From Escherichia coli (lineage in GTDB: Bacteria; Pseudomonadota; Gammaproteobacteria; Enterobacterales; Enterobacteriaceae), in assembly GCF_965641715.1 (NCBI RefSeq), contig NZ_OZ282453.1: a DNA stretch of 64,000 bases; one strand, written 5' to 3'. The translations under genes and the position numbers were made by a program. Of the stretch, positions 3,508 through 56,390 are shown in pieces. Under the pieces are notes generated by a model. The model ran no database searches. It had not been told where the DNA came from and saw only the letters and a program-made list of their open reading frames with translations. Position 1 is the first letter of the stretch; every line of letters starts with the position of its first letter.

Positions 3508-5091
3508 TCACACCTCGTACTCCATCTCGCCATCCTTACGCAGCGGTATAATCTGCACCTTCTGCACGCGATGGCTTTCTACCTGCAACGTTTTAAGCAA
3601 ATAATCCCCCACCTGAACTTCTTCGCCAGGTTTTGGAATACGCTGCAAATATTCCATCAATAGCCCGGCAATGGTGTGATATTCACGTTTTTCATCCAGC
3701 GGCAGCGGCACATATTGCACCAGATCTTCCAGCGGCATATGACCATTCGCCGTCCAGGAACCGTCCGCATTCTTCTGAATATCATGGCGGGCGTCGATCT
3801 CTTCCACTTCGTTCGGTAAGTTACCGGCAATGGTTTCAGTGACGTCACTTAATGTCACAATCCCTTCCACCGAGCCAAACTCATCCACCACAAAAGCAAA
3901 GTGCGTGCGGGCATTACGGAACTGCTCCAGGGCAGGTAACAACGGCAAGGTTTCCGGGAACACCAGCGGCTGGCGAATCAACACCCGCAGGTTGAGCGGT
4001 TCGCCGCGCAGAGACTGTTGTAGCAGGTCGATAACGTGAACAACACCGAGCAAATCTTCTGCGTCATCACCGTCGGTAACCACCAGCCGCGTATGCTGAT
4101 TTCGCTCCAGCAACTGGCGGATTTCTTCTTCCGGCGCGTTGAGATCGATATGCTCAATATCGTGGCGCGACGTCATAATGCTGCTGACGGTACGCTGGTT
4201 AAGATTAAGTACCCGCTCAATCATCCGCCGTTCCTGCGGATTAAAGATCTGCTGGTTACCATGATCCACCAGCATGGACGCGGTTTCGGCGTCCAGTTCC
4301 GCATCTTCTTTTTGCCCGCTAAGCAGGCGCATTACCGCTTCGGTAGTCCGCTGGCGTAGCGTCTGGTTAGCGGAAAGAAAACGTCGCCGGTTAAAGATAG
4401 CCAACTGATTGAGCGCCTCGATCATCACCGAGAAACCAATAGCAGCGTACAGGTAGCCTTTCGGAATGACGAAGCCGAAACCTTCTGCCACCAGGCTAAA
4501 GCCAATCATCAACAGGAAGCTTAAGCAGAGAATAACGATGGTCGGGTGACTGTTAACAAATTGCGTTAACGGCTTGCTGGCCATCAACATCAGGCTGATA
4601 GCGATAACCACGGCGGCCATCATGACCAGTAAATGGTCGACCATCCCGACGGCGGTAATCACTGAGTCGAGTGAGAAGATGGCGTCCAGTACCACAATTT
4701 GCGTCACCACGCCCCAGAACTTCGCACCTTTGCGTTGTGTGGGATTATTGCTGTCTTTCCCTTCCAGCCGTTCGTTCAGCTCCATCGTGGCTTTGAACAA
4801 CAGGAAGAAACCACCAAACAGCATGATTAAGTCGCGGGCGCTAAAGGTAAACGAGCGGAAGCTGAACAGCGGTTGAGTCAGGGTGACCAGCCAGGAGATT
4901 GACGCCAGCAGTAACAGGCGCATTAACATCGCCAGCAGCAGCCCGGTAACCCGTGCGCGGTCGCGCTGCTTCGGCGGTAGTTTTTCGGCGAGGATGGCAA
5001 TAAAGACCAGGTTATCAATGCCGAGGACCAGTTCGATCACAATCAGCGTGATTAACCCGGCCCAGATAGACGGATCGGCAATCCATTCCAT
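3508..5091 (-). CDS. yegH: TerC-family inner membrane protein with C-terminal CBS/CorC domains
   Basis: Long minus-strand ORF; N-terminal multi-TM region ([39 protein letters not shown]) and C-terminal CBS/transporter-associated region. Start placed at the internal ATG (527 aa) rather than the 549-aa ORF-track start. Confidence 0.85.
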
Positions 5092-5251
5092 AGTAAGTAC
5101 AAAACCTATTCGTTGTATGACAAATGTCACAATTCGATCATGGATAAATCGGGGCAAAAATGCAATGTTGCAGCACTATTTATCTCATATTATTTGAGGG
5201 TAATAACCTCACATTATCCCTGAATTAAAAGTGGTAATAATAAAACATTAT

Positions 5252-5532: not shown

Positions 5533-5571
5533 CAGTGTATTGGTAGCTAAAAAGCCAGGGGCGGTAGCGTG
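5533..5571 (+). promoter_or_regulatory. JUMPStart element with ops site (RfaH-dependent antitermination) in the wza leader
   Basis: cagtgtattggtagctaaaaagccaggggcggtagcgtg contains the ops motif GGCGGTAGCGTG (5560-5571) on the coding strand, about 180 bp upstream of wza. Confidence 0.8.
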
Positions 5572-6894: not shown

Positions 6895-7338
6895 ATGTTT
6901 AACAACATCTTAGTTGTCTGTGTCGGCAATATTTGCCGTTCCCCGACGGCGGAACGCTTACTGCAACGTTATCACCCGGAGCTGAAAGTGGAGTCCGCTG
7001 GACTCGGCGCGCTGGTCGGTAAGGGCGCTGATCCTACCGCCATCAGCGTTGCCGCAGAGCATCAACTGTCTCTGGAAGGTCACTGTGCACGGCAAATCAG
7101 CCGCCGCCTGTGTCGCAACTATGACCTGATTTTGACCATGGAAAAGCGCCATATCGAACGCTTATGCGAGATGGCACCTGAGATGCGCGGCAAAGTGATG
7201 CTGTTTGGTCACTGGGATAACGAATGTGAAATCCCCGATCCGTATCGCAAAAGCCGGGAAACGTTTGCAGCGGTGTACACATTACTTGAACGGTCTGCCC
7301 GCCAGTGGGCGCAGGCATTGAACGCAGAGCAGGTATAA
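6895..7338 (+). CDS. wzb: Low-molecular-weight protein-tyrosine phosphatase Wzb
   Basis: 147 aa; N-terminal CX5R P-loop (VCVGNICRSP) typical of LMW-PTP. Confidence 0.95.
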   Translation: MFNNILVVCVGNICRSPTAERLLQRYHPELKVESAGLGALVGKGADPTAISVAAEHQLSLEGHCARQISRRLCRNYDLILTMEKRHIERLCEMAPEMRGKVMLFGHWDNECEIPDPYRKSRETFAAVYTLLERSARQWAQALNAEQV

Positions 7339-20012: not shown

Positions 20013-20102
20013 AATGAATGCGAAACCGCGGTGTAAATAACGACAAAAACAAAATTGGCCGTTTCGGTCAGGGCCAACTATTGCCTGAAAAAGGGTAACG
20101 AT

Positions 20103-21473
20103 ATGAAAAAATTAACCTGCTTTAAAGCCTATGATATTCGCGGGAAATTAGGCGAAGAACTGAATGAAGATATTGCCTGGCGTATTGGTCGCGCCTATGG
20201 CGAATTTCTTAAACCGAAAACCATTGTTTTAGGCGGTGATGTCCGCCTCACCAGCGAAACCTTAAAACTGGCGCTGGCAAAAGGTTTACAGGATGCGGGC
20301 GTCGACGTGCTGGATATTGGCATGTCCGGCACCGAAGAGATCTATTTCGCCACGTTCCATCTCGGCGTGGATGGCGGCATTGAAGTTACCGCCAGCCATA
20401 ATCCGATGGATTACAACGGCATGAAGCTGGTGCGCGAAGGGGCTCGCCCAATCAGCGGTGATACCGGACTGCGCGATGTCCAGCGTCTGGCTGAAGCCAA
20501 CGACTTTCCTCCCGTCGATGAAACCAAACGCGGTCGCTATCAGCAAATCAGCCTGCGTGATGCATACGTTGATCACCTGTTTGGTTATATCAACGTCAAA
20601 AACCTCACGCCGCTCAAGCTGGTGATTAACTCCGGGAACGGCGCAGCGGGTCCGGTAGTGGACGCCATTGAAGCCCGCTTTAAAGCCCTCGGCGCACCTG
20701 TGGAATTGATCAAAGTGCACAACACGCCGGACGGTAATTTCCCCAACGGTATTCCTAACCCGCTACTGCCAGAATGCCGCGACGACACCCGCAATGCGGT
20801 CATCAAACACGGCGCGGATATGGGCATTGCCTTTGATGGCGATTTTGACCGCTGCTTCCTGTTTGACGAAAAAGGGCAGTTTATCGAAGGCTACTACATT
20901 GTCGGCCTGCTGGCAGAAGCGTTCCTCGAAAAAAATCCCGGCGCGAAGATCATCCACGATCCACGTCTCTCCTGGAACACTGTTGATGTGGTGACGGCCG
21001 CGGGCGGCACTCCGGTGATGTCGAAAACCGGACACGCCTTTATTAAAGAACGTATGCGCAAGGAAGACGCCGTCTACGGTGGCGAAATGAGCGCCCACCA
21101 TTACTTCCGTGATTTCGCTTACTGCGACAGCGGCATGATCCCGTGGCTGCTGGTCGCCGAACTGGTGTGCCTGAAAGGAAAAACGCTGGGAGAACTGGTG
21201 CGCGACCGGATGGCGGCATTCCCGGCAAGCGGTGAGATCAACAGCAAACTGGCGCAACCCGTTGAGGCGATTAACCGCGTGGAACAGCATTTTAGCCGTG
21301 AGGCGCTGGCGGTGGATCGCACCGATGGCATCAGCATGACCTTTGCCGACTGGCGCTTTAACCTGCGCACCTCCAACACCGAACCGGTGGTGCGGTTGAA
21401 TGTGGAATCACGCGGTGATGTGCCGCTGATGGAAGCGCGAACGCGAACTCTGCTGACGTTGCTGAACGAGTAA
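20103..21473 (+). CDS. cpsG: Phosphomannomutase (colanic acid copy)
   Basis: 456 aa from [20 protein letters not shown]; phosphohexomutase active-site region TASHNP; ORF-track start at 20055 rejected. Confidence 0.95.
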
Positions 21474-24439: not shown

Positions 24440-24711
<272 letters not shown>

Positions 24712-28850: not shown

Positions 28851-29744
28851 ATGACGAATTTAAAAGCAGTTATTCCTGTAGCGGGTCTTGGGATGCATAT
28901 GTTGCCTGCCACTAAGGCGATTCCCAAAGAGATGCTACCGATCGTCGACAAGCCAATGATTCAGTACATTGTTGACGAGATTGTGGCTGCAGGGATCAAA
29001 GAAATCCTCCTGGTAACTCACGCGTCCAAGAACGCGGTCGAAAACCACTTCGACACCTCTTATGAGTTAGAGTCTCTCCTTGAACAGCGCGTGAAGCGTC
29101 AGCTGCTGGCGGAAGTGCAGTCCATCTGTCCACCGGGCGTGACCATTATGAACGTGCGTCAGGGCGAACCTTTAGGTTTAGGCCACTCCATTTTGTGTGC
29201 ACGACCCGCCATTGGTGACAATCCATTTGTCGTGGTGCTGCCAGACGTTGTGATCGACGACGCCAGCGCCGACCCGCTGCGTTACAACCTTGCTGCCATG
29301 ATTGCACGTTTCAATGAAACGGGCCGCAGTCAGGTGCTGGCAAAACGTATGCCGGGTGACCTCTCTGAATACTCGGTCATCCAGACCAAAGAACCGCTGG
29401 ATCGCGAAGGTAAAGTCAGCCGCATCGTCGAATTTATCGAAAAACCGGATCAGCCGCAGACGCTGGACTCAGACATCATGGCCGTTGGTCGCTATGTGCT
29501 TTCTGCCGATATTTGGCCGGAACTGGAACGTACTCAGCCTGGTGCATGGGGGCGTATTCAGCTGACTGATGCCATCGCTGAACTGGCGAAAAAACAGTCC
29601 GTTGATGCCATGCTGATGACAGGTGACAGCTACGACTGCGGTAAAAAAATGGGCTATATGCAAGCGTTCGTGAAGTATGGGCTACGCAACCTCAAAGAAG
29701 GGGCGAAGTTCCGTAAAGGGATTGAGAAGCTGTTAAGCGAATAA
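28851..29744 (+). CDS. galF: UTP-glucose-1-phosphate uridylyltransferase-like protein GalF
   Basis: 297 aa from [30 protein letters not shown]; conserved 5-prime flank of O-antigen clusters. Confidence 0.95.
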
Positions 29745-30002
29745 TGAAAATCTGACCGGATGTAACGGTTGATAAGAAAATTATAACGGCAGTGAAGATT
29801 CGTGGCGAAAGTAATTTGTTGCGAATTTTCCTGCCGTTGTTTTATATAAACAATCAGAATAACAAGGAGTTAGCAATAGGATTTTAGTCAAAGTTTTCCA
29901 GGATTTTCCTTGTTTCCAGAGCGGATTGGTAAGACAATTAGCGTTTGAATTTTTCGGGTTTAGCGCGAGTGGGTAACGCTCGTCACATCGTAGGCATGCA
30001 TG

Positions 30003-30041
30003 CAGTGCTCTGGTAGCTGTAAAGCCAGGGGCGGTAGCGTG
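30003..30041 (+). promoter_or_regulatory. JUMPStart element with ops site upstream of the O-antigen cluster
   Basis: cagtgctctggtagctgtaaagccaggggcggtagcgtg; ops GGCGGTAGCGTG at 30030-30041, about 75 bp upstream of the rmlB start. Confidence 0.8.
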
Positions 30042-30115
30042 CATTAATACCTCTATTAATCAAACTAAGAGCCGCTTATTTCACAGCATGCTCTGAAGTA
30101 ATATGGAATAAAAGA

Positions 30116-31201
30116 GTGAAGATACTTGTTACTGGTGGCGCAGGATTTATTGGTTCTGCTGTAGTTCGTCACATTATAAATAATACGCAGGATAGTGTTG
30201 TTAATGTCGATAAATTAACGTACGCCGGAAACCTGGAATCACTTGCTGATGTTTCTGATTCTGAACGCTATATTTTTGAACATGCGGATATTTGCGATGC
30301 TGCTGCAATGGCACGGATTTTTGCTCAGCATCAGCCGGATGCAGTGATGCACTTGGCTGCTGAAAGCCATGTTGACCGTTCAATTACAGGTCCTGCGGCA
30401 TTTATTGAAACCAATATTGTTGGTACTTATGTCCTTTTGGAAGCCGCTCGCAATTACTGGTCTGCTCTTGATAGCGACAAGAAAAATAGCTTCCGTTTTC
30501 ATCATATTTCTACTGACGAAGTATATGGTGATTTGCCTCATCCTGACGAGGTAAATAATACAGAAGAATTACCCTTATTTACTGAGACAACAGCTTACGC
30601 GCCAAGCAGCCCTTATTCCGCATCCAAAGCATCCAGCGATCATTTAGTCCGCGCGTGGAAACGTACCTATGGTTTACCGACCATTGTGACTAATTGCTCT
30701 AACAATTATGGTCCTTATCATTTCCCGGAAAAATTGATTCCATTGGTTATTCTCAATGCTCTGGAAGGTAAAGCATTACCTATTTATGGTAAAGGGGATC
30801 AAATTCGCGACTGGCTGTATGTTGAAGATCATGCGCGTGCGTTATATACCGTCGTAACCGAAGGTAAAGCGGGTGAAACTTATAACATTGGTGGACACAA
30901 CGAAAAGAAAAACATCGATGTAGTGCTCACTATTTGTGATTTGTTAGATGAGATTGTCCCGAAAGAGAAATCTTACCGCGAGCAAATTACTTATGTTGCC
31001 GATCGTCCGGGACACGATCGCCGTTATGCGATTGATGCTGAGAACATTGGTCGCGAATTGGGATGGAAACCACAGGAAACGTTTGAGAGCGGGATTCGTA
31101 AAACGGTGGAATGGTACCTGTCCAATACAAAATGGGTTGATAATGTGAAAAGTGGTGCCTATCAATCGTGGATTGAACAGAACTATGAGGGCCGCCAGTA
31201 A
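30116..31201 (+). CDS. rmlB: dTDP-glucose 4,6-dehydratase
   Basis: 361 aa; GTG start; Rossmann motif TGGAGFIGS; conserved RmlB sequence. Confidence 0.95.
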
Positions 31202-32100
31202 TGAATATCCTCCTTTTTGGCAAAACAGGGCAGGTAGGTTGGGAACTACAGCGTGCTCTGGCACCTCTGGGTAATTTGATTGCTCTTGATGTTCACTCCA
31301 CTGATTACTGTGGTGATTTTAGTAATCCTGAAGGTGTAGCTGAAACCGTAAGAAGCATTCGGCCTGATATTATTGTCAACGCAGCCGCTCACACCGCAGT
31401 AGACAAAGCAGAATCAGAACCGAAGTTTGCACAATTACTTAACGCGACGAGTGTCGAAGCGATCGCGAAAGCAGCCAATGAAGTCGGCGCTTGGGTTATT
31501 CACTACTCTACTGACTACGTATTTCCGGGGACCGGTGAAATACCATGGCTGGAGACGGATGCAACCGCACCACTAAATGTTTACGGTGAAACCAAGTTAG
31601 CCGGAGAAAAGGCGTTACAGGAATATTGCGCGAAGCATCTTATTTTCCGGACCAGCTGGGTCTATGCAGGAAAAGGAAATAACTTCGCCAAAACGATGCT
31701 ACGTCTGGCAAAAGAGCGTGAAGAATTAGCGGTTATTAACGATCAGTTTGGTGCGCCAACAGGTGCTGAACTGCTGGCTGATTGTACAGCACATGCCATT
31801 CGTGTCGCACTGAATAAACCGGATGTCGCAGGCTTGTACCATTTGGTAGCCAGTGGTACCACAACCTGGTACGATTATGCTGCGCTGGTTTTTGAAGAGG
31901 CGCGCAAAGCAGGCATTCCCCTTGCACTCAACAAGCTCAACGCAGTACCAACAACTGCCTATCCTACACCAGCTCGTCGTCCACATAACTCTCGCCTTAA
32001 TACAGAAAAATTTCAGCAGAACTTTGCGCTTGTCTTGCCTGACTGGCAGGTTGGCGTGAAACGAATGCTTAACGAATTATTTACGACTACAGCAATTTAA
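31201..32100 (+). CDS. rmlD: dTDP-4-dehydrorhamnose reductase
   Basis: 299 aa; [20 protein letters not shown]; start overlaps the rmlB stop. Confidence 0.95.
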   Translation: MNILLFGKTGQVGWELQRALAPLGNLIALDVHSTDYCGDFSNPEGVAETVRSIRPDIIVNAAAHTAVDKAESEPKFAQLLNATSVEAIAKAANEVGAWVIHYSTDYVFPGTGEIPWLETDATAPLNVYGETKLAGEKALQEYCAKHLIFRTSWVYAGKGNNFAKTMLRLAKEREELAVINDQFGAPTGAELLADCTAHAIRVALNKPDVAGLYHLVASGTTTWYDYAALVFEEARKAGIPLALNKLNAVPTTAYPTPARRPHNSRLNTEKFQQNFALVLPDWQVGVKRMLNELFTTTAI

Positions 32101-32157
32101 TAGTTTTTGCATCTTGTTCGTGATGGTGGAGTAAGATGAATTAAAAGGAATGATGAA

Positions 32158-33036
32158 ATGAAAACGCGTAAAGGTATTATTTTAGCGGGTGGTTCTGGTA
32201 CTCGTCTTTATCCTGTGACTATGGCTGTCAGTAAACAGCTGTTACCGATTTATGATAAACCGATGATCTATTACCCGCTTTCTACACTGATGTTAGCGGG
32301 TATTCGCGATATTTTGATTATCAGTACGCCACAGGATACTCCTCGTTTTCAACAACTGCTGGGTGACGGGAGCCAGTGGGGGCTAAATCTTCAGTACAAA
32401 GTGCAACCGAGTCCAGATGGTCTTGCGCAGGCATTTATCATCGGTGAAGAGTTTATTGGTGGTGATGATTGTGCTTTGGTTCTTGGTGATAATATCTTCT
32501 ACGGCCACGATCTGCCGAAGTTAATGGACGTAGCTGTTAACAAAGAAAGTGGTGCAACAGTATTTGCTTATCACGTTAATGATCCTGAACGTTATGGTGT
32601 CGTTGAGTTTGATAAAAACGGTACGGCAATTAGTCTGGAAGAAAAACCGTTACAACCAAAAAGTAATTATGCGGTAACCGGGCTTTATTTCTATGATAAC
32701 GACGTTGTCGAAATGGCGAAAAACCTTAAGCCTTCTGCCCGTGGTGAACTGGAAATTACCGATATTAACCGTATCTATATGGAGCAGGGGCGTTTATCCG
32801 TTGCCATGATGGGGCGTGGTTATGCATGGCTGGATACGGGGACACATCAGAGTCTTATTGAAGCAAGCAACTTCATTGCCACCATTGAAGAGCGCCAGGG
32901 ACTAAAGGTTTCCTGCCCAGAAGAAATTGCTTACCGTAAAGGGTTTATTGATGCAGAGCAGGTAAAAGCATTAGCTGAGCCGCTGAAAAAAAATGCTTAT
33001 GGCCAGTATCTGCTGAAAATGATTAAAGGTTATTAA
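32158..33036 (+). CDS. rmlA: Glucose-1-phosphate thymidylyltransferase
   Basis: 292 aa; [15 protein letters not shown] nucleotidyltransferase motif. Confidence 0.95.
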
Positions 33037-33040
33037 TAAA

Positions 33041-33592
33041 ATGAACGTAATTAAAACAAAAATTCCAGATGTACTGATTTTTGAACCGAAAGTTTTTAGT
33101 GATGAGCGTGGTTTCTTTTTCGAGAGCTTTAACCAGAAGATTTTTGAGGAAGCTGTAGGCCGCAAAGTTGAATTTGTTCAGGATAACCATTCGAAGTCTA
33201 GTAAAGGTGTTTTACGCGGGCTGCATTATCAGTTGGAACCTTATGCACAAGGAAAATTGGTGCGCTGCGTTGTCGGTGAAGTTTTTGACGTAGCTGTTGA
33301 TATTCGTAAATCGTCATCTACTTTTGGCAAATGGGTTGGGGTGAATTTATCTTCTGAGAATAAGCGGCAATTGTGGATTCCTGAGGGATTTGCACATGGT
33401 TTTTTAGTGCTGAGTGAAACGGCGGAGTTTGTTTATAAAACAACAAATTTTTATTCGTATCCACATGAGCGTAGTATTATATGGAGTGATTCTAATATAA
33501 ATATAAGTTGGCCGCTCCCAAATAGTATGATAAATCTTTCTAAAAAAGATAAGATGGCACCAAATTTAAACATGGAAAATAAAATAAGTTGA
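33041..33592 (+). CDS. rmlC: dTDP-4-dehydrorhamnose 3,5-epimerase
   Basis: 183 aa; cupin-type RmlC sequence (FFESFN...RGLHYQ...). Confidence 0.95.
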   Translation: MNVIKTKIPDVLIFEPKVFSDERGFFFESFNQKIFEEAVGRKVEFVQDNHSKSSKGVLRGLHYQLEPYAQGKLVRCVVGEVFDVAVDIRKSSSTFGKWVGVNLSSENKRQLWIPEGFAHGFLVLSETAEFVYKTTNFYSYPHERSIIWSDSNINISWPLPNSMINLSKKDKMAPNLNMENKIS

Positions 33593-34827
33593 AAAATTCA
33601 ATATTAACAAACATTTTTTCAATGTTCAGCATACAAGGTGTTAATTACATCATTCCTTTGGTGACAATTCCATATCTTGTTAGGGTTTTAGGGTTAGAGG
33701 TTTATGGTAAATATAGTATTATTTTGTCTGTGTTACAATATTTAGTGATAATTACTGATTATGGATTTAATTTGTCTGGAAGTAGGCAGATAGCATTAAG
33801 TCTAAATGATAAGAAAAAAATTTCAAAGATATTTTGTGCGATAATAATATGTAAGGTTATTATTGCTGCAATTTCATTCTTTTCTGTTTTCTTATTTATG
33901 GAATATAATGGTTCTTATAGCGCTTATGTTGAGTTATTTATAAGCGGAATGGGAATTGTTATAGGTACATCATTTTTCCCAGTATGGTTGTTTCAAGGGT
34001 ATGAACGCATGTATTGGATTGCTATCAGTAATTTATTTGCAAAAATTACCGGAGGCATCCTGATTTTTTTACTTGTCCACAATAACAGCGATCTTAATAT
34101 TGCTATTATTATTCAGAGTTGTACTTGTCTCATTTCTGCTGGGATTGCATTAACGACAGCAAGAATAGGGAAGTTTGTTTATTTTCTATGGCCTCCACTA
34201 TCCGAAATAAAAAAACAACTTAAACTGGGTTGGAATATTTTTTTATCGACATTTTTTAGTAGTATGTACACAACAAGCATACCATTGATACTTGGAGTTA
34301 ACGCCGGAGCGGAAGCAGTAGGCGTTTATAATTCCGCAGATAAACTCAAGCAAGCTCTGCAAGGAATAATAGGTCCTGTATCTCAAGCTATTTACCCGCG
34401 CTCAAGCCGTTTATTTTCGCACTCAATTAAGGATGGACTTTCCTTTGTAACAAAAGTCTCGATTTTCTTATGTTCATTTATGTTTCTATGCAGTGCAGTA
34501 GGTTTTTTTCTATCAGAATACATCGTTAATTTAGCCTTTGGTGCAGGACATGAGTCATCTGTTTCAGTATTAAAAATTATAATTTGGATACCATCAGTTG
34601 TTGCTGTTGCGAATATGTTAGGTGTTCAAATAATCTTACCTATGGGATTAACCAAAATCTTTGGCATGACTTATGTAGTTTTGGGAGGAATAGGATTAAT
34701 AATTATGTATGCCGCTTCATATTATGAGTCTTTCATTGGGGTGTCATATGCAGCGATATTAATAGAGATTATTATTACAGTAATCTTTTTGGCAGTTATT
34801 AAGAAGCGCATTAGAGGGAAAGAATGA
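33589..34827 (+). CDS. wzx: O-antigen flippase Wzx (PST family), serotype-specific
   Basis: About 400-aa AT-rich ORF encoding a polytopic membrane protein directly after rmlC. Start is ambiguous: TTG at 33589 (overlapping the rmlC stop) or ATG at 33622. Confidence 0.75.
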   Translation: MKNSILTNIFSMFSIQGVNYIIPLVTIPYLVRVLGLEVYGKYSIILSVLQYLVIITDYGFNLSGSRQIALSLNDKKKISKIFCAIIICKVIIAAISFFSVFLFMEYNGSYSAYVELFISGMGIVIGTSFFPVWLFQGYERMYWIAISNLFAKITGGILIFLLVHNNSDLNIAIIIQSCTCLISAGIALTTARIGKFVYFLWPPLSEIKKQLKLGWNIFLSTFFSSMYTTSIPLILGVNAGAEAVGVYNSADKLKQALQGIIGPVSQAIYPRSSRLFSHSIKDGLSFVTKVSIFLCSFMFLCSAVGFFLSEYIVNLAFGAGHESSVSVLKIIIWIPSVVAVANMLGVQIILPMGLTKIFGMTYVVLGGIGLIIMYAASYYESFIGVSYAAILIEIIITVIFLAVIKKRIRGKE

Positions 34828-35741
34828 TTTATATATCTGTATGTATACCGACAAAAAATAGGCTTGACTATTTGACAAAAACAGTTGAGTCTATTATCAA
34901 TGATAACGTTGATGTTCATGCATATGAAATAGTTATTGCAGATAATTCTGACGATGATTTAACAGAAAAGTATGCAAGAGAATTAATGGATAGTGGGTAT
35001 AATATCAAATATTATAAAAATCCACAAACTGGGTTTTACAACTCTATTCAAGCACTTCAGTTAGGTGATGGTGCATTTCTTAAGTTACATAATGATTACA
35101 CCAGCTTCAATAAAGGAGGTTTTAAAAAACTATTCGATCATGTAGTAAAAAATTATGACTCTCGAAATATGCTTTTCTTCACTAATGGAGCATTGGGGGC
35201 CGTATCGACAAAATATGAATGTACTTCATTTGATAAGTTTGTATTTAATGCAAGTTATTTGATTACTTGGAGTTCGTCATTTTCTATTTGGAAGGATGAC
35301 TTTATTGAATTGGAAACAAAACCTGATGATCTCAATGAGATGTTCCCTCACACCAGCCTTATTTTACAATCAAATAATAAAATATTCTCAATAGTAGATG
35401 AATCTATTTTTAAAAATATTAGTGTATCAAGAAAAGGGGGGTATAATATATTTTATAATTTTTGTGTGTTATTTTTGGATATGCTTGATATTGAAAAAAA
35501 GAAAGGCTTGTTGTCAGAAAAAACAATAAAAAAGGTAAAAAGAGATATGTATTATAAGTTTGTAATGGTTTGGTACTATCGGACAATTCAGAACAATAAA
35601 AGAAGATATACCTTTGATAACGAAAATGCGTATGAGAATATTAAAAAAGCATATGGATTTATAGGTTTTTCTGGTGTGTTTTTAGTAGCTAAAGCCAAAT
35701 ATTTCTTTGATAAAATATTTGGCTTTTTCGTTAAAAGTTAG
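34824..35741 (+). CDS. Glycosyltransferase family 2 (O-antigen)
   Basis: 305 aa; N-terminal GT2 signature ISVCIPTKNR...IVIADNSDDD; AT-rich; sugar specificity unknown. Confidence 0.75.
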   Translation: MIYISVCIPTKNRLDYLTKTVESIINDNVDVHAYEIVIADNSDDDLTEKYARELMDSGYNIKYYKNPQTGFYNSIQALQLGDGAFLKLHNDYTSFNKGGFKKLFDHVVKNYDSRNMLFFTNGALGAVSTKYECTSFDKFVFNASYLITWSSSFSIWKDDFIELETKPDDLNEMFPHTSLILQSNNKIFSIVDESIFKNISVSRKGGYNIFYNFCVLFLDMLDIEKKKGLLSEKTIKKVKRDMYYKFVMVWYYRTIQNNKRRYTFDNENAYENIKKAYGFIGFSGVFLVAKAKYFFDKIFGFFVKS

Positions 35742-35747
35742 TATGGA

Positions 35748-37064
35748 TTGAGCATGATTATGCAGTTAAGAACAAATATTTCTGGGAGGGTGGGGCTTTG
35801 GTTGATTTTATTTACCATTTTTGGGGGAGCTTATAAGACTGCATTTGGAACTATTAGTACATCATATATATCATTTGTCTGGGGTGGCTGGATTTTAATT
35901 ATATATATATATCATTCATATTATGTAAGACTTAATTTCTTATATAGGATTAGCAGAAGTTATTATCTATATGCATTTTTTATATCTGTGTTGTTAATAG
36001 TATCTCTTATACAATTCTCATTTTTCGGTATAGGTGATATGCTGAATATTGACTTACAACTAAAAAGAGTAATGCAGGCAATAGTATCATTTACATTTTT
36101 TGCTATAACTGCTGATTATATTATTAACAAATTGACTGTTAGGGATTTATTCTTAGGAATCATATATTTTCTGTTATTTATAACGTTGTTGTGTGTTATA
36201 CAATTATCAAATGATTCATTTAGAATATGGTATTTGAATCTTACTGCAATTGATGGATACTGGTATGAGTGGGCCCAGAAAAGTAATCGAGCGATTGGAT
36301 TAAAGGCTATGTCTATTTGGGATACATCAGTATCCTATTCATTCCTGTTATTTATAGCATTTGCTGCATACTTTCAATTAAAAAATAAAAATATTCTTCT
36401 ATATTTATTTGTAGCATTGGTTTTTCTATTGATTGTTATGAGTGGCAGGACTGGATTATTATTTTTTATTGTATTTTCCTGCCTTCTATCAATCAGGTAT
36501 AAAATTTATGGATTCATGTTTACATATGCAATAACTTCGGTTATCTGCATTTTTTTTATTATGCTTGTGAGTGAAAGTGAGACTGTTTTACGTGTAATAA
36601 ATTTTGCTTTTGAATTAATTATGAATATTATAAATGGGAAAATTGAAACAAACTCAACAGATGATCTTATTAATAATCACTTATTTATACCTCATTTAGA
36701 TAACATATTTTGGGGTGATAATATTTATATTGGTGATGGTGATGAAGTAATTTCAAAAATTGGCCGTTCATCTGACTCCGCATTTGTTATTAACTATGTT
36801 TCTAATGGAGTGATTGGTTTTTTCATAACATCTATTCTGGCCATCATTAATGGGAAAATGATATTTAGTTATTTTAATATTCACAATAAAAGTGTTTTTT
36901 ATTTTTTTGTTTTGCTTGTTTGTTTTTTTCTGTCATTTGGTTTGTATATAAAGGTATTGGTATATGTTAGTGCTACTTTGTTGAAAGCAATGATATTTAC
37001 AACTATATGTTTAAATCATATTTTTAAAAATAAAATAATAGTTCGGAAAACTTATGAGAAATGA
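35748..37064 (+). CDS. wzy: O-antigen polymerase Wzy (candidate)
   Basis: 438 aa, extremely hydrophobic with 10 or more predicted TM segments, rich in I/F/L/Y, no recognisable soluble domain; position between wzx and the transferases. Family call from membrane topology only. Confidence 0.65.
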   Translation: MSMIMQLRTNISGRVGLWLILFTIFGGAYKTAFGTISTSYISFVWGGWILIIYIYHSYYVRLNFLYRISRSYYLYAFFISVLLIVSLIQFSFFGIGDMLNIDLQLKRVMQAIVSFTFFAITADYIINKLTVRDLFLGIIYFLLFITLLCVIQLSNDSFRIWYLNLTAIDGYWYEWAQKSNRAIGLKAMSIWDTSVSYSFLLFIAFAAYFQLKNKNILLYLFVALVFLLIVMSGRTGLLFFIVFSCLLSIRYKIYGFMFTYAITSVICIFFIMLVSESETVLRVINFAFELIMNIINGKIETNSTDDLINNHLFIPHLDNIFWGDNIYIGDGDEVISKIGRSSDSAFVINYVSNGVIGFFITSILAIINGKMIFSYFNIHNKSVFYFFVLLVCFFLSFGLYIKVLVYVSATLLKAMIFTTICLNHIFKNKIIVRKTYEK

Positions 37065-37614
37065 GAAATTAATTATTTTAATTTTACGTGGTGGACCATC
37101 ATTCTATCGCAGACTCAGAAGTCGAATATATGCAATGATTTTCAATACTGAAAAGTTGACAATTGGTAGAAATGTTTCTCTGTCAGGCACGAACAATATT
37201 TACTTTGGACGTAACGTATTGGTTGGAAATCAATCATGGTTGGCGGCGATAAACTCGGGGAAAATAATTATTGGAGATAATGTATCATTAAGTCAAAATG
37301 TGCATATAGCTGCTAATCAATGCGTTAGAATAGGAAATGGTTGTTTGATAGGAAGCGATGTTTTAATAACAGATCACAATCATGGTTATGGCAGAGAACT
37401 AATATATGTTCCACCTAAAGAACGTAAGTTAATTATTAAAGGAAGCACTGAAATTGGTGAAAATTGTTGGTTGGGTGATAATGTGAAAATATTAAGTGGA
37501 GTTGTTTTAGGGAGCAATGTAGTTGTTGGTGCAAATTCTGTTGTAACACGGAGTTTTCCAGCTAACTGTATTATAGGTGGTATACCAGCAAAACTAATAA
37601 AAAAAATACAATGA
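37054..37614 (+). CDS. O-acetyltransferase, hexapeptide-repeat (maltose/galactoside acetyltransferase-like) family
   Basis: 186 aa; hexapeptide repeats and HNHGYG-like motif (IGDNVSLSQNVHIAANQ...ITDHNHGYG...IGENCWLGDNVKILSGVVLGSNVVVGANSVV); overlaps the wzy 3-prime end by 11 nt. Confidence 0.75.
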   Translation: MRNEKLIILILRGGPSFYRRLRSRIYAMIFNTEKLTIGRNVSLSGTNNIYFGRNVLVGNQSWLAAINSGKIIIGDNVSLSQNVHIAANQCVRIGNGCLIGSDVLITDHNHGYGRELIYVPPKERKLIIKGSTEIGENCWLGDNVKILSGVVLGSNVVVGANSVVTRSFPANCIIGGIPAKLIKKIQ

Positions 37615-37632
37615 TATAAGGGTAGTGTTTTT

Positions 37633-38562
37633 ATGACGGTAGATATTATTATAGCAACATATAATGGCGAAAAATACATAAGGGAACAAGTGGAGTCTAT
37701 ACTCAATCAAACATATAAGAATTTTCATTTATATATACGTGATGATGGTTCTACTGATAAGACAAAAGATATTATTTATGACTTGAAATGTTTAGACGAT
37801 AGAATTATTTTGATTGAAGATGATATTATTAATAATGGTGTTGGAGAAAACTTTAAAATACTATTAAAACATTGCTCCGCTGATTATGTTTTTATTGCGG
37901 ATCAGGATGATGTATGGGAAAAAAGTAAGATAGAAGAGCTGCTCTCTTTTGCTATAAAAAATTTACCTACAAACTCGCCAGGTATTGCATATGCCCCAGG
38001 ATATGTTGTTGATGAACATTTGTATTCATCAAAGTTAAAAATGACAAATACAGACAATAAAGTTAAAAGTCTTGGTGATATGATCTTAATGAATGGCGGA
38101 GTGCAAGGATGTGCAATGGTTATTAATCGATGTCTATATCAGATGGTTCTCCGTACCAATTTTTATTGGTATATGCATGATCAAGTATTAAGTCTTTATG
38201 CTATTTGTTTTGGTTATATATTGTTTTTACCTAAACCATTATTTAGATACCGGCAGCACTCTAATAATGTATTAGGATATAATTCAGGAGGGGTGAAGTT
38301 ATGGTTCAAAAAATATATCCGCTCCAGAAGGAATACTTTTTTAATTAACAAACATACAGATAAGTTGTTTTGTGATTTTTTTTCTAGTGAGTCGTTTAGA
38401 ATGAGAAAAAATCAACATGATTTTTTCTTTTCATATATGGGCTCCAGAAAAAATAAAGTTAAGTTTTTGTATTACATTATAACCAATAAAATATTTCTAC
38501 GTGGGAAGCTAACTAACGCTATTATTAAAACGTTGTTAGTTAAAGATATTGTTGAACGATGA
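37633..38562 (+). CDS. Glycosyltransferase family 2 (O-antigen)
   Basis: 309 aa; N-terminal IIIATYNGEKYI...YIRDDGSTD GT2 signature. Confidence 0.75.
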   Translation: MTVDIIIATYNGEKYIREQVESILNQTYKNFHLYIRDDGSTDKTKDIIYDLKCLDDRIILIEDDIINNGVGENFKILLKHCSADYVFIADQDDVWEKSKIEELLSFAIKNLPTNSPGIAYAPGYVVDEHLYSSKLKMTNTDNKVKSLGDMILMNGGVQGCAMVINRCLYQMVLRTNFYWYMHDQVLSLYAICFGYILFLPKPLFRYRQHSNNVLGYNSGGVKLWFKKYIRSRRNTFLINKHTDKLFCDFFSSESFRMRKNQHDFFFSYMGSRKNKVKFLYYIITNKIFLRGKLTNAIIKTLLVKDIVER

Positions 38563-38592
38563 GTTATTTATAATAAAATGGATGGTTGAATA

Positions 38593-39699
38593 ATGAATGT
38601 TGTTTTTTCGGCAAATACATCATGGTATTTATATAATTTTAGGCAAAATACCATAAGAAGGTGTATCAAAAAAGGGCACAGTGTTTATATCATTGCCCCT
38701 GAAGATGAATACACTGAAAAACTAGTAAGTCTTGGTGTTAAGAAATATAATCTATTTTTAAATGGAAGTTCACTAAATCCATTTGTTGATATTGTTAGTG
38801 TATTCCATTTGTTTTTACTTTATTTTTTTATTAAACCTGATGTTGTCTGTAATTTTACCCCGAAGTTAAATGTTTATAGCTCTCTCGTCTCATTTTTTTA
38901 TCCAAAGATTAAAGTCATAAATAACATATCGGGTTTAGGTTCTGCTTTTGTATCGAATAATATAAAGAAAAGTATGCTTCATATATTATACAAAATAACA
39001 CAGAGAAGAGCTGATATTATTTTTTTTCAAAATAATGATGATTTGTCTTATTTTTTAGAACATCGACTGGTTCAGGAAATAAAAACAAGATGCGTTATAG
39101 GTTCGGGAGTTGATATTAACAAATTTAAAGTAACAAAAATAGACAGAGAAAAATGTATAAAGTTTATACTTGTTGCTCGTCTGATTGAGCATAAAGGAAT
39201 TCGATTGTATGTTGAGGCTGCCAGACTTATAAAAAGTAAATATCCCTTTACACATTTTGCATTGCTGGGGCCTAGCATTGATTCACATCCATCATCAATT
39301 AATTTAGATGAGGTTCATAGATGGACTGAGTTGGGGTATATTGATTATCTTGGTCATTCAGATGATGTTGCAAATGTTATTGCTGATTTCGATTGTGTTG
39401 TACTACCTTCCTATTATCGTGAAGGTGTTCCCAAATCATTACTTGAGGCAGCTGCATCGGGTAAAATAATAATTACTACAAACACAGTAGGTTGTAGAGA
39501 CTCTGTCATTGAAAATGTTACTGGGTTTCTTTGTGAACCTCGCTCGTTAGAAAGCTTAATCGGAGCCTTGGAAAGAGTATTACAACTTAATGAGAATGAG
39601 TTTATTAATATGAAAATATCAGCAAGACATCTGGCTGAAGAAAAGTTTGATGAGAATATCAACATAAAAAAATATATTGATTCTATTGAAAACAAGTAG
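38593..39699 (+). CDS. Glycosyltransferase family 4 (O-antigen)
   Basis: 368 aa; C-terminal GT4 region REGVPKSLLEAAASGKIIITTNTVGCRDSV. Confidence 0.75.
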   Translation: MNVVFSANTSWYLYNFRQNTIRRCIKKGHSVYIIAPEDEYTEKLVSLGVKKYNLFLNGSSLNPFVDIVSVFHLFLLYFFIKPDVVCNFTPKLNVYSSLVSFFYPKIKVINNISGLGSAFVSNNIKKSMLHILYKITQRRADIIFFQNNDDLSYFLEHRLVQEIKTRCVIGSGVDINKFKVTKIDREKCIKFILVARLIEHKGIRLYVEAARLIKSKYPFTHFALLGPSIDSHPSSINLDEVHRWTELGYIDYLGHSDDVANVIADFDCVVLPSYYREGVPKSLLEAAASGKIIITTNTVGCRDSVIENVTGFLCEPRSLESLIGALERVLQLNENEFINMKISARHLAEEKFDENINIKKYIDSIENK

Positions 39700-39724
39700 T
39701 ATTTAATTCGATATAGGTTTATAC

Positions 39725-40783
39725 ATGAAGATATTTCTTTGCTCTCTCTATTATGAGTCAAAAAGAGTTACAGGTGCAAATAAACGGTTTGATTATTTTG
39801 GGAAATATCTTGCTAGAAATGAAGAAGTTTCGTTGACGGTTATTGTTCGTGATGGGGAGATACCGTCATGGGCAACTGATGCTATTGTTTTACCAAAATA
39901 TCAGTACTTGCCACCTTTATTTCGCAGAATTCTATATTGGTTGCATTTGTCAAAAATATTTTTTAAATGTGACAATATAATAATTAGTGATTTTATGCCG
40001 ATTCCGTTTATTCCTTTTAAAGGTAATGATAATTATTACCAGTTAGTTCATGACATCCGCAATTTTACCGATTACAATAGAGCTTTTTTTAAAAAAATGG
40101 CAAGTGTATTTCAAGGATATCAATGGCGCAAAACACAAAATATTCTCACAGTGAGTAATTTTACTAAATGGCAATTGATTAGATATTGTAATGTTAATGA
40201 GAATAAAATAAAAGTATCCTATAATGGAATTGAGCTTATTGAAAGGAACAAACTTGTAAGAGATATTGATTTTTTATATATAGCTACATTTGAAAAAAGA
40301 AAAAATCATGATAATTTAATAAAGGCTTTTTATTATTATGTTAATGAAATAAACACCAATGCGAAATTATATCTAATTGGTAGGGATTTAGGATATAAAA
40401 AGAGTATTTTAGAGCTTGTATCGTCGCTTCAGTTATCACAATCAGTGATTTTTATTGATTCTGTTAGCGAAAATGAGTTGAGTAGAATTTATGAAAGAAC
40501 TCATTGCTTTATCAGTCCTTCTCTCTATGAAGGATTTGGTATGCCGATTATTGAAGCGATGTACCATGGTTGTAATGTGGCTTGTAGTAACATTGATGTT
40601 TTCCGTGAAATAGCTCAGAATCATGCTTCGTACTTTGAACCGGATAATATTCATAGTATTATAGATGCAATGTGCCTTGCACGAGAGTATGAAAATAACA
40701 ATCCCGAAACTCTTCATTATGTAAATGTTAATTTTTCTTGGGATTCTATAACTGCTAAATTTTTAGAGGACGTTAGATATTAA
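39725..40783 (+). CDS. Glycosyltransferase family 4 (O-antigen; possibly a mannosyltransferase)
   Basis: 352 aa; GT4 EX7E region EGFGMPIIEAMYHGCNVACSNIDVFREI; lies immediately upstream of manC-manB. Confidence 0.7.
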   Translation: MKIFLCSLYYESKRVTGANKRFDYFGKYLARNEEVSLTVIVRDGEIPSWATDAIVLPKYQYLPPLFRRILYWLHLSKIFFKCDNIIISDFMPIPFIPFKGNDNYYQLVHDIRNFTDYNRAFFKKMASVFQGYQWRKTQNILTVSNFTKWQLIRYCNVNENKIKVSYNGIELIERNKLVRDIDFLYIATFEKRKNHDNLIKAFYYYVNEINTNAKLYLIGRDLGYKKSILELVSSLQLSQSVIFIDSVSENELSRIYERTHCFISPSLYEGFGMPIIEAMYHGCNVACSNIDVFREIAQNHASYFEPDNIHSIIDAMCLAREYENNNPETLHYVNVNFSWDSITAKFLEDVRY

Positions 40784-40784
40784 C

Positions 40785-42185
40785 ATGATTCAACCTGTAA
40801 TTATTGCTGGGGGCGTTGGTTCTAGATTATGGCCGCTTTCTAGGGAACAGTACCCAAAACAATTTCTTACATTATTAAATGATAAGAGTTTACTTCAAAA
40901 TACATTATTACGACTCAAAGATCTGCATCATTTACCTCCCATAATCGTATGCAACCATGAGCATAGATTTTTAGTCGCTGAACAATTAAGGATGGAATCT
41001 ATTAATGTTGGTGGAATTATTTTAGAACCTAAAGGAAAAAATACAGCTCCAGCTGTTGCCCTTTCAGCCTTTTTTGTAAATAGATGTGAGATAAACTTAG
41101 AGAAGGATCCTGTCTTATTAGTGTTAGCTGCGGATCATGTTATTGATGATACGGATGGATTTTTAGCTGCAATAAATAGTGCTTTACCTCTTGCGCAGAA
41201 CGGTATGTTAGTGACTTTTGGTGTTGTTCCTACTCATCCTGAAACAGGATATGGATATATCCAGACTGGCAAGAAAATAATAGATAATTCATTTGAAATT
41301 ATTGATTTTAAAGAAAAGCCATCATTAGAAAAAGCGCAGGAATATTTAGATAGTAAAAACTATTTATGGAATAGTGGTATGTTTATGTTTCGTGCGTCTA
41401 CTTATTTAAATGAGTTGAAAAAATTCAGATCTGATATTTATGATGCTTGCTTTGATGCCATGAATTCCTCAAGTTTTGATTTTGATTTTGTTCATGTAAA
41501 TAAAGAAAATTTTTCATTGTGCTTATCTGAATCAATCGATTATGCTGTCATGGAGCAAACAGATAAAGGTGTTGTTGTCCCCATTGATATAGGATGGAGT
41601 GACATTGGTTCGTGGTCAGCTCTTTGGGATGTTTGTAGTAAAGATACTAATAATAATGTTATTAAAGGGGATGTCATAGATCATGATTCTCATAATTGTT
41701 TTATCATCGCTGAGACATCCTTAGTTACTACTATTGGTCTTAATAATCTTATTATTATTCAAAGCAATGATTCACTACTTATTGCTGACCGTCATTCTTC
41801 CCAAATGGTGAAGAATATAGTTGACGAACTCAAGGAAAAAGAACGTCATGAATATTATTTCCATTCGGAGGGATATCGGCCTTGGGGAAAATATAAAACA
41901 ATTGATACCGGGGAAAACTATCAAGTAAAACGAATTACTGTGAGGCCTGGAGGGAAACTATCAATGCAAATACATTATCATCGTGCTGAACATTGGGTTA
42001 TTGTCTCTGGTACAGCAAGAGTTATAGTTGATGGCAATACCAAATTGCTTAGAGAGAATGAATCTATATACATTCCTCAGGGATGTATTCATAGTTTAGA
42101 AAATCCAGGAGAAACTCCTCTCGATATAATAGAGGTTCGCTCAGGTGTTTATCTTGAAGACGATGATGTTGTGCGCTTTCAATAG
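40785..42185 (+). CDS. manC: Mannose-1-phosphate guanylyltransferase (O-antigen copy)
   Basis: 466 aa; same domain order as cpsB ([14 protein letters not shown]...cupin) but AT-rich and divergent at DNA level. Confidence 0.9.
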
Positions 42186-42232
42186 TAGCTCTATTTTTTT
42201 TACAACAAACGTTTTGTTATAAAAATTATCAT

Positions 42233-43603
42233 ATGAAACAATTAACCTGCTTTAAAGCCTATGATATTCGCGGGAAATTAGGCGAAGAACTGAATGAAGA
42301 TATCGCCTGGCGTATTGGGCGCGCCTATGGCGAATTTCTCAAACCGAAAACCATTGTGTTAGGCGGTGATGTCCGCCTTACCAGCGAAACCTTAAAACTG
42401 GCGCTGGCGAAAGGTTTACAGGATGCGGGAGTCGACGTGCTGGATATTGGTATGTCCGGCACTGAAGAGATCTATTTCGCCACGTTCCATCTCGGCGTGG
42501 ATGGCGGCATTGAAGTTACCGCCAGCCATAATCCGATGGATTATAACGGCATGAAGCTGGTGCGCGAGGGGGCTCGCCCGATCAGCGGTGATACCGGACT
42601 GCGCGACGTCCAGCGTCTGGCAGAAGCCAACGACTTTCCTCCCGTCGATGAAACCAAACGCGGTCGCTATCAGCAAATCAATCTGCGTGACGCTTACGTT
42701 GATCACCTGTTCGGTTATATCAATGTCAAAAACCTCACGCCGCTCAAGCTGGTGATCAACTCCGGGAACGGCGCAGCGGGTCCGGTGGTGGACGCCATCG
42801 AAGCCCGCTTTAAAGCCCTCGGCGCACCTGTGGAATTAATCAAAGTACACAACATGCCGGATGGCAATTTCCCCAACGGTATTCCTAACCCGCTACTGCC
42901 GGAATGTCGCGACGATACTCGTAATGCGGTCATCAAACACGGCGCGGATATGGGCATTGCCTTTGATGGCGATTTTGACCGCTGCTTCCTGTTTGACGAA
43001 AAAGGGCAGTTTATTGAGGGCTACTACATTGTCGGCCTGTTGGCAGAAGCATTCCTCGAAAAAAATTCCGGCGCGAAGATCATCCACGATCCACGTCTCT
43101 CCTGGAACACCGTTGATGTGGTGACTGCCGCAGGCGGCACCCCGGTAATGTCGAAAACCGGACACGCCTTTATTAAAGAACGTATGCGCAAGGAAGACGC
43201 CATCTACGGTGGCGAAATGAGCGCCCACCATTACTTCCGTGATTTCGCTTACTGCGACAGCGGCATGATCCCGTGGCTGCTGGTCGCCGAACTGGTGTGC
43301 CTGAAAGGGAAAACGCTGGGCGAACTGGTACGCGACCGGATGGCAGCATTTCCGGCAAGCGGTGAGATCAACAGCAAACTGGCGGACCCCGTTGAGGCGA
43401 TTAACCGCGTGGAACAGCATTTTAGCCGTGAGGCTCTGGCGGTGGATCGCACCGATGGCATCAGCATGACCTTTGCCGACTGGCGCTTTAACCTGCGCAC
43501 CTCCAACACCGAACCGGTGGTGCGCCTGAATGTGGAATCGCGCGGTGATGTGCCGCTGATGGAAGAAAAAACAAAACTTATTCTTGAGTTACTGAGTAAG
43601 TAA
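42233..43603 (+). CDS. manB: Phosphomannomutase (O-antigen copy; mosaic with cpsG)
   Basis: 456 aa; codons 3 to about 444 are near-identical in DNA to cpsG (20109-21434), while the first two codons and the last 13 codons ([14 protein letters not shown]) are AT-rich and different. Confidence 0.95.
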
Positions 43604-45173: not shown

Positions 45174-45202
45174 TCTGATTTAAATCAATTAACCAACACA
45201 AG

Positions 45203-45230
45203 GCCCGGAGAAACCCTCCGGGCTTTTTTA
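45203..45230 (+). terminator. Rho-independent terminator downstream of gnd
   Basis: gcccggagaaaccctccgggc hairpin followed by tttttt. Confidence 0.7.
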
Positions 45231-46588: not shown

Positions 46589-46608
46589 TTATTTTGTTTC
46601 ATACTAAG

Positions 46609-46638
46609 AAAAGGCCCTAATAAATTAGGGCCTTTTCT
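46609..46638. terminator. Bidirectional rho-independent terminator between convergent ugd and gla
   Basis: aaaaggccctaataaattagggcctttt: perfect stem flanked by an A-run and a T-run. Confidence 0.7.
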
Positions 46639-46653
46639 TATGGTTTTATAAAA

Positions 46654-49160: not shown

Positions 49161-49765
49161 TCACTGATGCCGTTTACGCAGGTTCTCAATCACCGTCGTT
49201 AAATCCAGATCCTGATCCTGCAACAACACCAGCAGGTGATACATCAAATCAGATGCCTCGTTGGTCAGTTCAAAGCGGTCATGTACCGTCGCTGCCAGTG
49301 CGGTTTCCACGCCTTCTTCGCCCACTTTCTGCGCAATGCGTTTGGTGCCGCTGGCATACAGTTTGGCGGTGTAGGAGGTTTCCGGGTCGGCAGATTTACG
49401 TTCGGCGAGCAGTTGTTCCAGTTGATAAAGGAACAGCCACTGGTGAGCGGTGTCGCCGAAGCAGCTGCTGGTGCCTTTGTGGCAGGTTGGGCCGATGGGA
49501 TTCGCCAGTACCAGTAACGTGTCGTTGTCGCAGTCCGGGGCAATACTCACCACATTGAGGAAATTGCCCGACGTTTCGCCTTTGGTCCACAGTCGCTGTT
49601 TAGTGCGGGAGAAAAAGGTGACTTTGCCGCTTTCGATGGTTTTGTCCAGAGCTTCCGGGTTCATATAGCCCAGCATTAACACTTCACCGGATACCGCGTG
49701 TTGCACAATCACCGGCATCAGTCCGTCGGTTTTTTCCCAGTCCAGTTCGCGGCGTTGTTGTTCTG

Positions 49766-49772
<7 letters not shown>
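49161..49772 (-). CDS. hisI: Bifunctional phosphoribosyl-AMP cyclohydrolase / phosphoribosyl-ATP pyrophosphatase
   Basis: 203 aa; conserved HisIE sequence; last gene of the his operon. Confidence 0.95.
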
Positions 49773-56233: not shown

Positions 56234-56339
56234 TCGCGCAATAAAAAAGCCCCCGGAAGGTGATCTTCCGGGGGCTTTCTCATGCGTTCATGCACCACTG
56301 GAAGATCTGAATGTCTTCCAGCACACATCGCCTGAAAGA
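56234..56339 (-). promoter_or_regulatory. his operon attenuator including rho-independent terminator
   Basis: On the minus strand: GC-rich hairpin gcccccggaagatcaccttccgggggc followed by a T-run (plus-strand 56243-56275), located between hisL and hisG. Confidence 0.85.
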
Positions 56340-56390
56340 CTAGTCAGGATGATGGTGATGATGGTGGTGTTTAAATTGAACGCGTGTCAT
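56340..56390 (-). CDS. hisL: his operon leader peptide (MTRVQFKHHHHHHHPD)
   Basis: Reverse complement of 56340-56390 reads atgacacgcgttcaatttaaacaccaccatcatcaccatcatcctgactag: 16 codons with seven consecutive His codons. Confidence 0.95.
   Translation of the reverse strand: MTRVQFKHHHHHHHPD

Follow-up and report, generated by a model that had tools for sequence, protein, structure and literature searches.

What is the 39-nt block in the gap between galF and rmlB, and what might it do for the O-antigen genes that follow it? We approached this question with a window of 64,000 nucleotides, which is the whole stretch of DNA analyzed here and covers the his-linked polysaccharide region of the Escherichia coli chromosome. 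Gene names were taken from the annotation of a near-identical complete genome, YSP8-1 (pig faeces), and from ORF lists; YSP8-1 is the closest complete genome, with 99.9% identity over 29000-31500. We are highly confident that the block is the JUMPStart/ops element of an E. coli O-antigen (rfb/wb) operon leader, through which RfaH would mediate expression to the distal end of the operon. The features of the window are collected in Table 1.

Table 1. Position and strand of the leader elements, genes and operons in the 64-kb window
Feature	Position	Strand	Remarks
First JUMPStart/ops copy	5533-5571	+	RF01707, 57.3 bits (E = 1.6e-10); 178 nt upstream of wza
ops 12-mer of the wza copy	5560-5571	+	Exact GGCGGTAGCGTG
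wza-wzb-wzc-wcaA...wcaM (colanic acid)	5750-28676	+	
galF	28851-29744	+	Upstream conserved neighbour of the leader; annotation of matching genomes
Putative sigma-70 promoter, TTGTTT-17 nt-GACAAT	29910-29938	+	Block conserved among divergent E. coli galF-O-antigen gaps
JUMPStart element, 39 nt	30003-30041	+	galF-rmlB intergenic leader; Rfam RF01707
JUMPStart stem-loop	30010-30028	+	Arms 30010-30014 (CTGGT) and 30024-30028 (GCCAG), 9-nt loop; Rfam consensus structure
GGTAGC, upstream copy	30012-30017	+	Direct repeat of the ops-internal GGTAGC at 30033-30038; sequence search
ops 12-mer GGCGGTAGCGTG	30030-30041	+	Exact match, 3' end of JUMPStart
ops bases	G1 = 30030, C3 = 30032, G4 = 30033, G5 = 30034, T6 = 30035, A7 = 30036, G8 = 30037	+	
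O-antigen operon rmlB-rmlD-rmlA-rmlC-wzx-glycosyltransferase-putative wzy-acetyltransferase-three glycosyltransferases-manC-manB	30116-43603	+	
gnd, then ugd	3' of manB	+	
NAD-dependent sugar epimerase/dehydratase-family gene, 334 aa	46654-47658	-	Between ugd and wzzB
wzzB	Next after the epimerase gene	+	
hisIE	49161-49772	-	Directly after wzzB
his operon leader	56241-56364	-	his operon on the - strand

The sequence, strand, position and family membership of the block were observed directly. The RF01707 covariance model, whose family reportedly goes back to Hobbs and Reeves in 1994, matched the block over the full length of the model (1-38/38) with 60.0 bits, compared to a gathering score of 35 (E = 2.6e-11). 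On the + strand the 39-mer reads cagtgctctggtagctgtaaagccaggggcggtagcgtg, also written CAGTGCTCTGGTAGCTGTAAAGCCAGGGGCGGTAGCGTG. The ops 12-mer at its 3' end agrees with the consensus R-GGCGGTAGYNT quoted in PMC3911127, including the GGCGGTAG core and the bases C3, G4, G5, T6, A7 and G8. The block is intergenic and non-coding, the gap between galF and rmlB is 371 nt, and the start of rmlB lies 74 nt downstream. An earlier sequence-only reading had proposed a JUMPStart with an ops 12-mer at this place, between galF and rmlB, and as one of a pair of copies of which it is the second; the covariance model and the exact 12-mer at both sites, together with the mapped gap, confirmed each of these points. 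That reading had also raised the concern that the ops might lie on the wrong strand, which proved unfounded: the ops and all 13 genes downstream of it are on the + strand, placing the ops on the non-template (sense) strand.

We compared the two copies by aligning the 39-bp blocks together with the 20 nt that flank each of them on either side. The copy upstream of wza reads cagtgtattggtagctaaaaagccaggggcggtagcgtg on the + strand, also written CAGTGTATTGGTAGCTAAAAAGCCAGGGGCGGTAGCGTG, and carries its GGTAGC pair at 5542-5547 and 5563-5568. The copies match at 34 of 39 positions, and their flanks bear no relation to each other on either side; the 39-nt block is thus a discrete repeated element and not part of a duplicated region. 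The copies share the ops 12-mer, the stem-loop, the GGTAGC repeat and the strand logic. Five substitutions, in the loop and the 5' part, set them apart, as does the longer leader downstream of the wza copy. The shared core tggtagct..aaagccaggggcggtagcgtg that had been noticed from the letters alone is correct, as is the observation that each copy heads a long polysaccharide operon, co-oriented with it in both cases (wza-wcaM and rmlB-manB).

A search of the window with RF01707 returned just these two JUMPstart intervals. The exact 12-mer likewise occurs twice in the 64 kb, both times on the + strand, whereas dinucleotide shuffles contained it 0.02 times on average and none of 100 shuffles reached two. 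A chance origin of the two 12-mers is ruled out by this expectation and by the RF01707 E-value near 1e-11. Allowing up to two mismatches in the ops gave nine matches in the 64-kb window where 4.5 are expected, a difference without significance, so that only the two exact sites stand out. The GGCGGTAG core was present four times against 1.4 expected, again not a significant excess. Its two further occurrences, at 4973-4980 (+) and 7034-7041 (-), lie within coding regions and antisense to their host genes, an ORF on the - strand (3508-5157) and an ORF on the + strand (6895-7338), respectively. These two cores are probably non-functional.

The element is conserved well beyond the window. Of 5426 complete E. 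coli genomes, 4630 contain the galF-JUMPStart (galF-rmlB intergenic) region. In E. coli B, O157:H7 and three strains whose first O-antigen genes are unrelated, the JUMPStart carries a few changes in its 5' part and loop, with the stem and the ops retained. For many genomes, sequence similarity to the galF-rmlB gap ended at positions 296-300 of the query, corresponding to 30040-30044 of the window and thus to the 3' end of the ops, and an alignment of diverse O-antigen loci placed the onset of divergence directly 3' of the 12-mer. Since the similarity stops at this point, the JUMPStart is, to judge from these alignments, the final conserved block ahead of the variable genes and the left edge of an exchangeable O-antigen cassette. 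The serogroup-specific core of the cassette (33589-40783) was present in only six of these 5426 genomes, and half of the six are pig isolates. An NCBIfam search with the wzx and the putative wzy of this core matched no family that would name the serogroup.

A near-universal leader ahead of a rare core could also mean that galF and the JUMPStart form the left homology arm for swaps of O-antigen clusters and are kept for that purpose rather than for transcription control. The sharp edge of similarity and the rarity of the core agree with this explanation, but such an edge is to be expected anyway wherever a constrained element abuts a variable cassette. The JUMPStart is also found ahead of operons that are not exchanged as cassettes, for example wza in this window, and related elements occur across the gamma-proteobacteria; moreover, published RfaH ChIP and expression data account for the conservation directly. 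We consider it very improbable that the element is kept for recombination, and a role as recombination junction is best seen as a side-effect of an element kept for transcription control, not as an alternative to it.

The genome of strain XH992 gave a further observation at this boundary. Its first O-antigen CDS (1717-2631 of the extracted locus) is annotated from 1717, leaving a gap of only 216 nt from galF to the CDS, and no GGCGGTAG core was found in these 216 nt. The similarity of XH992 to the leader of the window reaches position 304 of the query (position 1806 of the locus), past the position of the ops. The JUMPStart/ops of XH992, if present, may lie under an over-extended CDS call.

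We examined the architecture of the operon downstream of the element, which, like the conservation of the element, could be observed directly. The O-antigen operon comprises 13 genes over 13.5 kb, all on the + strand, with intergenic gaps of -11 to 57 nt. The O-antigen region from 33 to 42 kb has a GC content of 28-34%, compared to about 53% in the surrounding chromosome. No strong terminator-like site was found on the + strand between the ops and manB; the first such sites lie after gnd (45200-45226) and after ugd (46605-46640). The first gene, rmlB, starts with GTG and has no evident Shine-Dalgarno sequence.

RfaH is a virulence and serum-resistance determinant, and the rfaH gene, which belongs to the E. 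coli core genome, is located outside the 64-kb window. For this operon, the position of the promoter, the pausing, the binding of RfaH and the suppression of polarity are predicted here by analogy with homologous systems. Transcription would start at a promoter in the galF-rmlB gap, probably near 29943, and RNA polymerase would enter the untranslated leader. The polymerase would pause when the RNA 3' end is at U11 of the ops; published work on other ops templates predicts this position at T11, which is 30040 in the window. In the open bubble, the non-template 12-mer would form a small DNA hairpin in which C3 pairs with G8 and G4 with A7 while T6 is flipped out, the hairpin bases C3 to G8 being 30032-30037. 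RfaH would recognize this hairpin, leave its autoinhibited form, bind the beta' clamp helices and remain on the polymerase through the operon. Once bound, it would reduce pausing, exclude NusG, block Rho termination and the roadblocks formed by H-NS/StpA, and probably recruit ribosomes through S10. The expected outcome is that the AT-rich and poorly translated rmlB-manB operon is expressed to its distal end, and the copy at 5533-5571 would play the same role for the colanic-acid operon wza-wcaM.

These steps are modelled on published work on the ops family. The ops has been described as a 12-nt element of untranslated leaders whose non-template DNA recruits RfaH to the paused elongation complex (PMC2871177). 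In the paused complex, the non-template ops forms a hairpin in which C3:G8 and G4:A7 pair, G5 is stacked and T6 flips out into an RfaH pocket (PMC6391919). RfaH stays bound, lowers pausing, keeps NusG away, opposes Rho and probably loads ribosomes via S10; the K-12 rfb operon is reportedly Rho-silenced, and RfaH raises its expression about 300-fold (PMC5449661). Binding of RfaH to the K-12 rfb operon has also been published. RfaH ChIP in the UPEC strain CFT073 identified eight leader ops sites, including that of the O-antigen operon (wzx), and all eight loci carry H-NS-StpA filaments, while intragenic ops-like sites were without RfaH binding (PMC9765446). At wza-wcaM of CFT073, the RfaH ChIP signal came from the delta-hns delta-stpA mutant, that is, RfaH binding to this operon was seen only when the H-NS/StpA repression of initiation was removed (PMC9765446).

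The operon in the window fits this picture of RfaH action in several respects, namely a leader ops on the sense strand, a long AT-rich operon, the lack of a strong internal terminator, and a GTG start without Shine-Dalgarno. The start codon context of rmlB fits ribosome loading aided by RfaH, and the low GC content resembles that of the H-NS/Rho-silenced DNA that RfaH reportedly rescues. We found no sequence evidence against the JUMPStart/ops reading.

The galF-rmlB gap was also searched for the start of the O-antigen transcript. A consensus promoter scan of the + strand between galF and the JUMPStart made no call, TTGTTT/GACAAT being a weak hexamer match. From the conserved block that contains these hexamers, we infer a transcription start near 29943. 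The spacing of this putative promoter implies a leader of 173 nt, and 173 nt is reportedly also the leader length that Marolda and Valvano gave for the O7 cluster in 1998.

We further analyzed the stem-loop that lies directly upstream of the ops. Folding gave no thermodynamic support for the stem: the z-score of the 39-mer against shuffles was -0.03, and the other 39-mer and the leader of 146 nt likewise scored close to 0. The case for the stem is thus a comparative one, the fold being no more stable than that of shuffled sequence. Scanning species-representative genomes for GGGGCGGTAGCGTG gave at least 120 loci, and among the matches listed, genuine gamma-proteobacterial leaders were mixed with chance matches in GC-rich phyla. 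The alignment used to look for covariation comprised 27 sequences resembling JUMPStart, from the genera Escherichia, Citrobacter, Enterobacter, Superficieibacter, Rahnella, Pantoea, Aeromonas and Idiomarina. In this set, which was chosen by eye for JUMPStart likeness and may carry a selection bias, the five stem pairs were formed in 99.2% of cells, compared to 21-62% when the partner was slid by 1-3 columns. Compensatory double changes were present at two of the five pairs, from U-A to A-U at one and from U-G to A-U, G-C or C-G at the other.

A cruder count made with no hand selection pointed the same way. Among the matches listed, 42 of 59 from gamma-proteobacteria (Enterobacterales, 17 of 22; others, 25 of 37) had a stem of 5 bp or more whose end lies 1 nt upstream of the ops 12-mer, whereas only 13 of 62 from other phyla had one. 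The sequences of these stems are unrelated, as in CAGGA/UCCUG of Pseudomonas and UGAUGG/CCGUCG of Nitrincola. A covariance model was also tried as a means of enlarging the family, and all 101 matches scored, with only the seed sequences above 40 bits and the invariant 14-mer alone contributing about 20 bits; since every locus had been fetched via this 14-mer, the extension was uninformative. A conserved stem-loop common to JUMPstart elements was reported by Weinberg et al. 2010 (PMC2864571), and the covariation described here agrees with that published result and adds little to it.

As a separate observation, exact ops 14-mers outside the Enterobacterales were preceded by hairpins that differ in stem and loop and stand at the same distance from the ops, in several copies per genome. 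Such hairpins were present at seven loci of Pseudomonas, Stutzerimonas and Marinobacterium, at three loci of Nitrincola and at three of Marinobacter.

The comparative evidence for the stem raises the possibility that the JUMPStart is chiefly a structured leader RNA, which would bind a protein or control the stability or translation of the mRNA independently of RfaH and of the ops at the DNA level. The paired cells, the compensatory changes, the unrelated stems abutting the ops and the earlier report of the stem-loop all speak for this reading. The most conserved part of the element, however, is the unpaired ops 12-mer, for which the two studies of the paused complex cited above provide structural and biochemical backing of a DNA-level mechanism. 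With its 5 bp and variable loop, the hairpin lacks the complexity needed in a ligand sensor, and the stem always accompanies the ops, which suggests an accessory rather than an independent role. We consider an RfaH-independent leader RNA very improbable.

Within the RfaH-dependent reading, we considered what an accessory hairpin might contribute. One tentative and rather unlikely idea is that the 5' half of the JUMPStart encodes a nascent-RNA hairpin, which would form in the RNA exit channel of the polymerase paused at U11 of the ops and would lengthen the pause and with it the time available for RfaH loading, after which RfaH would release the pause. The 3' end of the stem (30028-30030) and the RNA 3' end predicted for the pause (30040) are separated by 10-12 nt. 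A spacing of 10-12 nt between hairpin and RNA 3' end is that of a his-type hairpin pause, and RfaH suppresses hairpin-stabilized pausing. The covariation and the ops-abutting stems of unrelated sequence in Pseudomonas, Marinobacter, Nitrincola, Halomonas and Aeromonas are compatible with this idea. No literature test of it was found in a search that was limited and aimed at other questions.

Comparison with known systems placed the element close to the classical ones. With respect to the K-12 rfb (galF-rfbB) leader and the O7 wb cluster, the JUMPStart is identical to that of K-12 (39/39, for the K-12 derivative RR1), it lies 74-75 nt upstream of rfbB/rmlB between the same flanking genes, and the galF-rmlB gap is about 97% identical to that of K-12 derivatives. 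Only the cargo differs, which here is the rare cluster of rmlBDAC, wzx, wzy, an acetyltransferase, four glycosyltransferases and manCB. The match to the JUMPstart RNA motif RF01707 (Weinberg et al. 2010) is full-length with the same stem, and we noted no difference from it. Rfam models the motif as RNA, and the best-supported step of ops recognition is that of non-template DNA. The ops elements of waaQ/rfa, hly, kps and tra have in common with this one the GGCGGTAG core, the location in a 5' leader, the non-template strand and the recruitment of RfaH to a paused polymerase. Several of these ops elements reportedly occur without the full 39-nt JUMPStart context.

By every feature that can be tested on sequence, the block at 30003-30041 belongs to the JUMPStart/ops family and is identical to its best-studied representative, and the interpretation first proposed for it held in every part that could be checked. 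The element, its position and its mechanism are already known and are textbook matter for E. coli, and RfaH ChIP and expression work on homologous elements has been published for CFT073 (PMC9765446) and K-12 (PMC5449661). Its significance is that of a correct annotation: the element shows where the O-antigen cluster has its 5' boundary and where its transcription is controlled. By analogy with these strains, it predicts that expression of both O-antigen and colanic acid in the strain studied here would depend on RfaH.

Some additional observations were made in the genes around the element. The epimerase gene between ugd and wzzB could not be given a specific NCBIfam identity, with all models below their cut-off and GalE the best of them at 145 bits against a cut-off of 262. 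YSP8-1 carries extra genes downstream of wzzB (40643-42501 of its extracted locus), one for a hypothetical protein and one that is its second of the manC type, and differs there from the window, in which wzzB is followed by hisIE (about 49100).

The O-antigen manB (42233-43603) and the colanic-acid cpsG (20103-21473) are 94.6% identical at the DNA level (1297/1371), compared to only about 57% identity of manC to cpsB. The GC content of manB is 0.54 and that of the adjacent manC is 0.35. This step in GC content and identity at the manC/manB junction looks as if the two phosphomannomutase genes had recombined or undergone gene conversion. An algC RNA motif (RF02929) was found at 20049-20098 (+) in the cpsB-cpsG gap, just 5' of the cpsG start at 20103. 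It scored 78.2 bits, the threshold being 33.8, and RF02929 gave no match in the 47 nt between manC and manB of the O-antigen cluster. Two tandem naRNA4 elements (REP-type, RF02564) were found on the - strand at 24488-24558 and 24584-24654, with 81.9 and 79.7 bits, respectively, and this pair is placed in the 371-nt gap between wzxC and wcaK, inside the colanic-acid operon.
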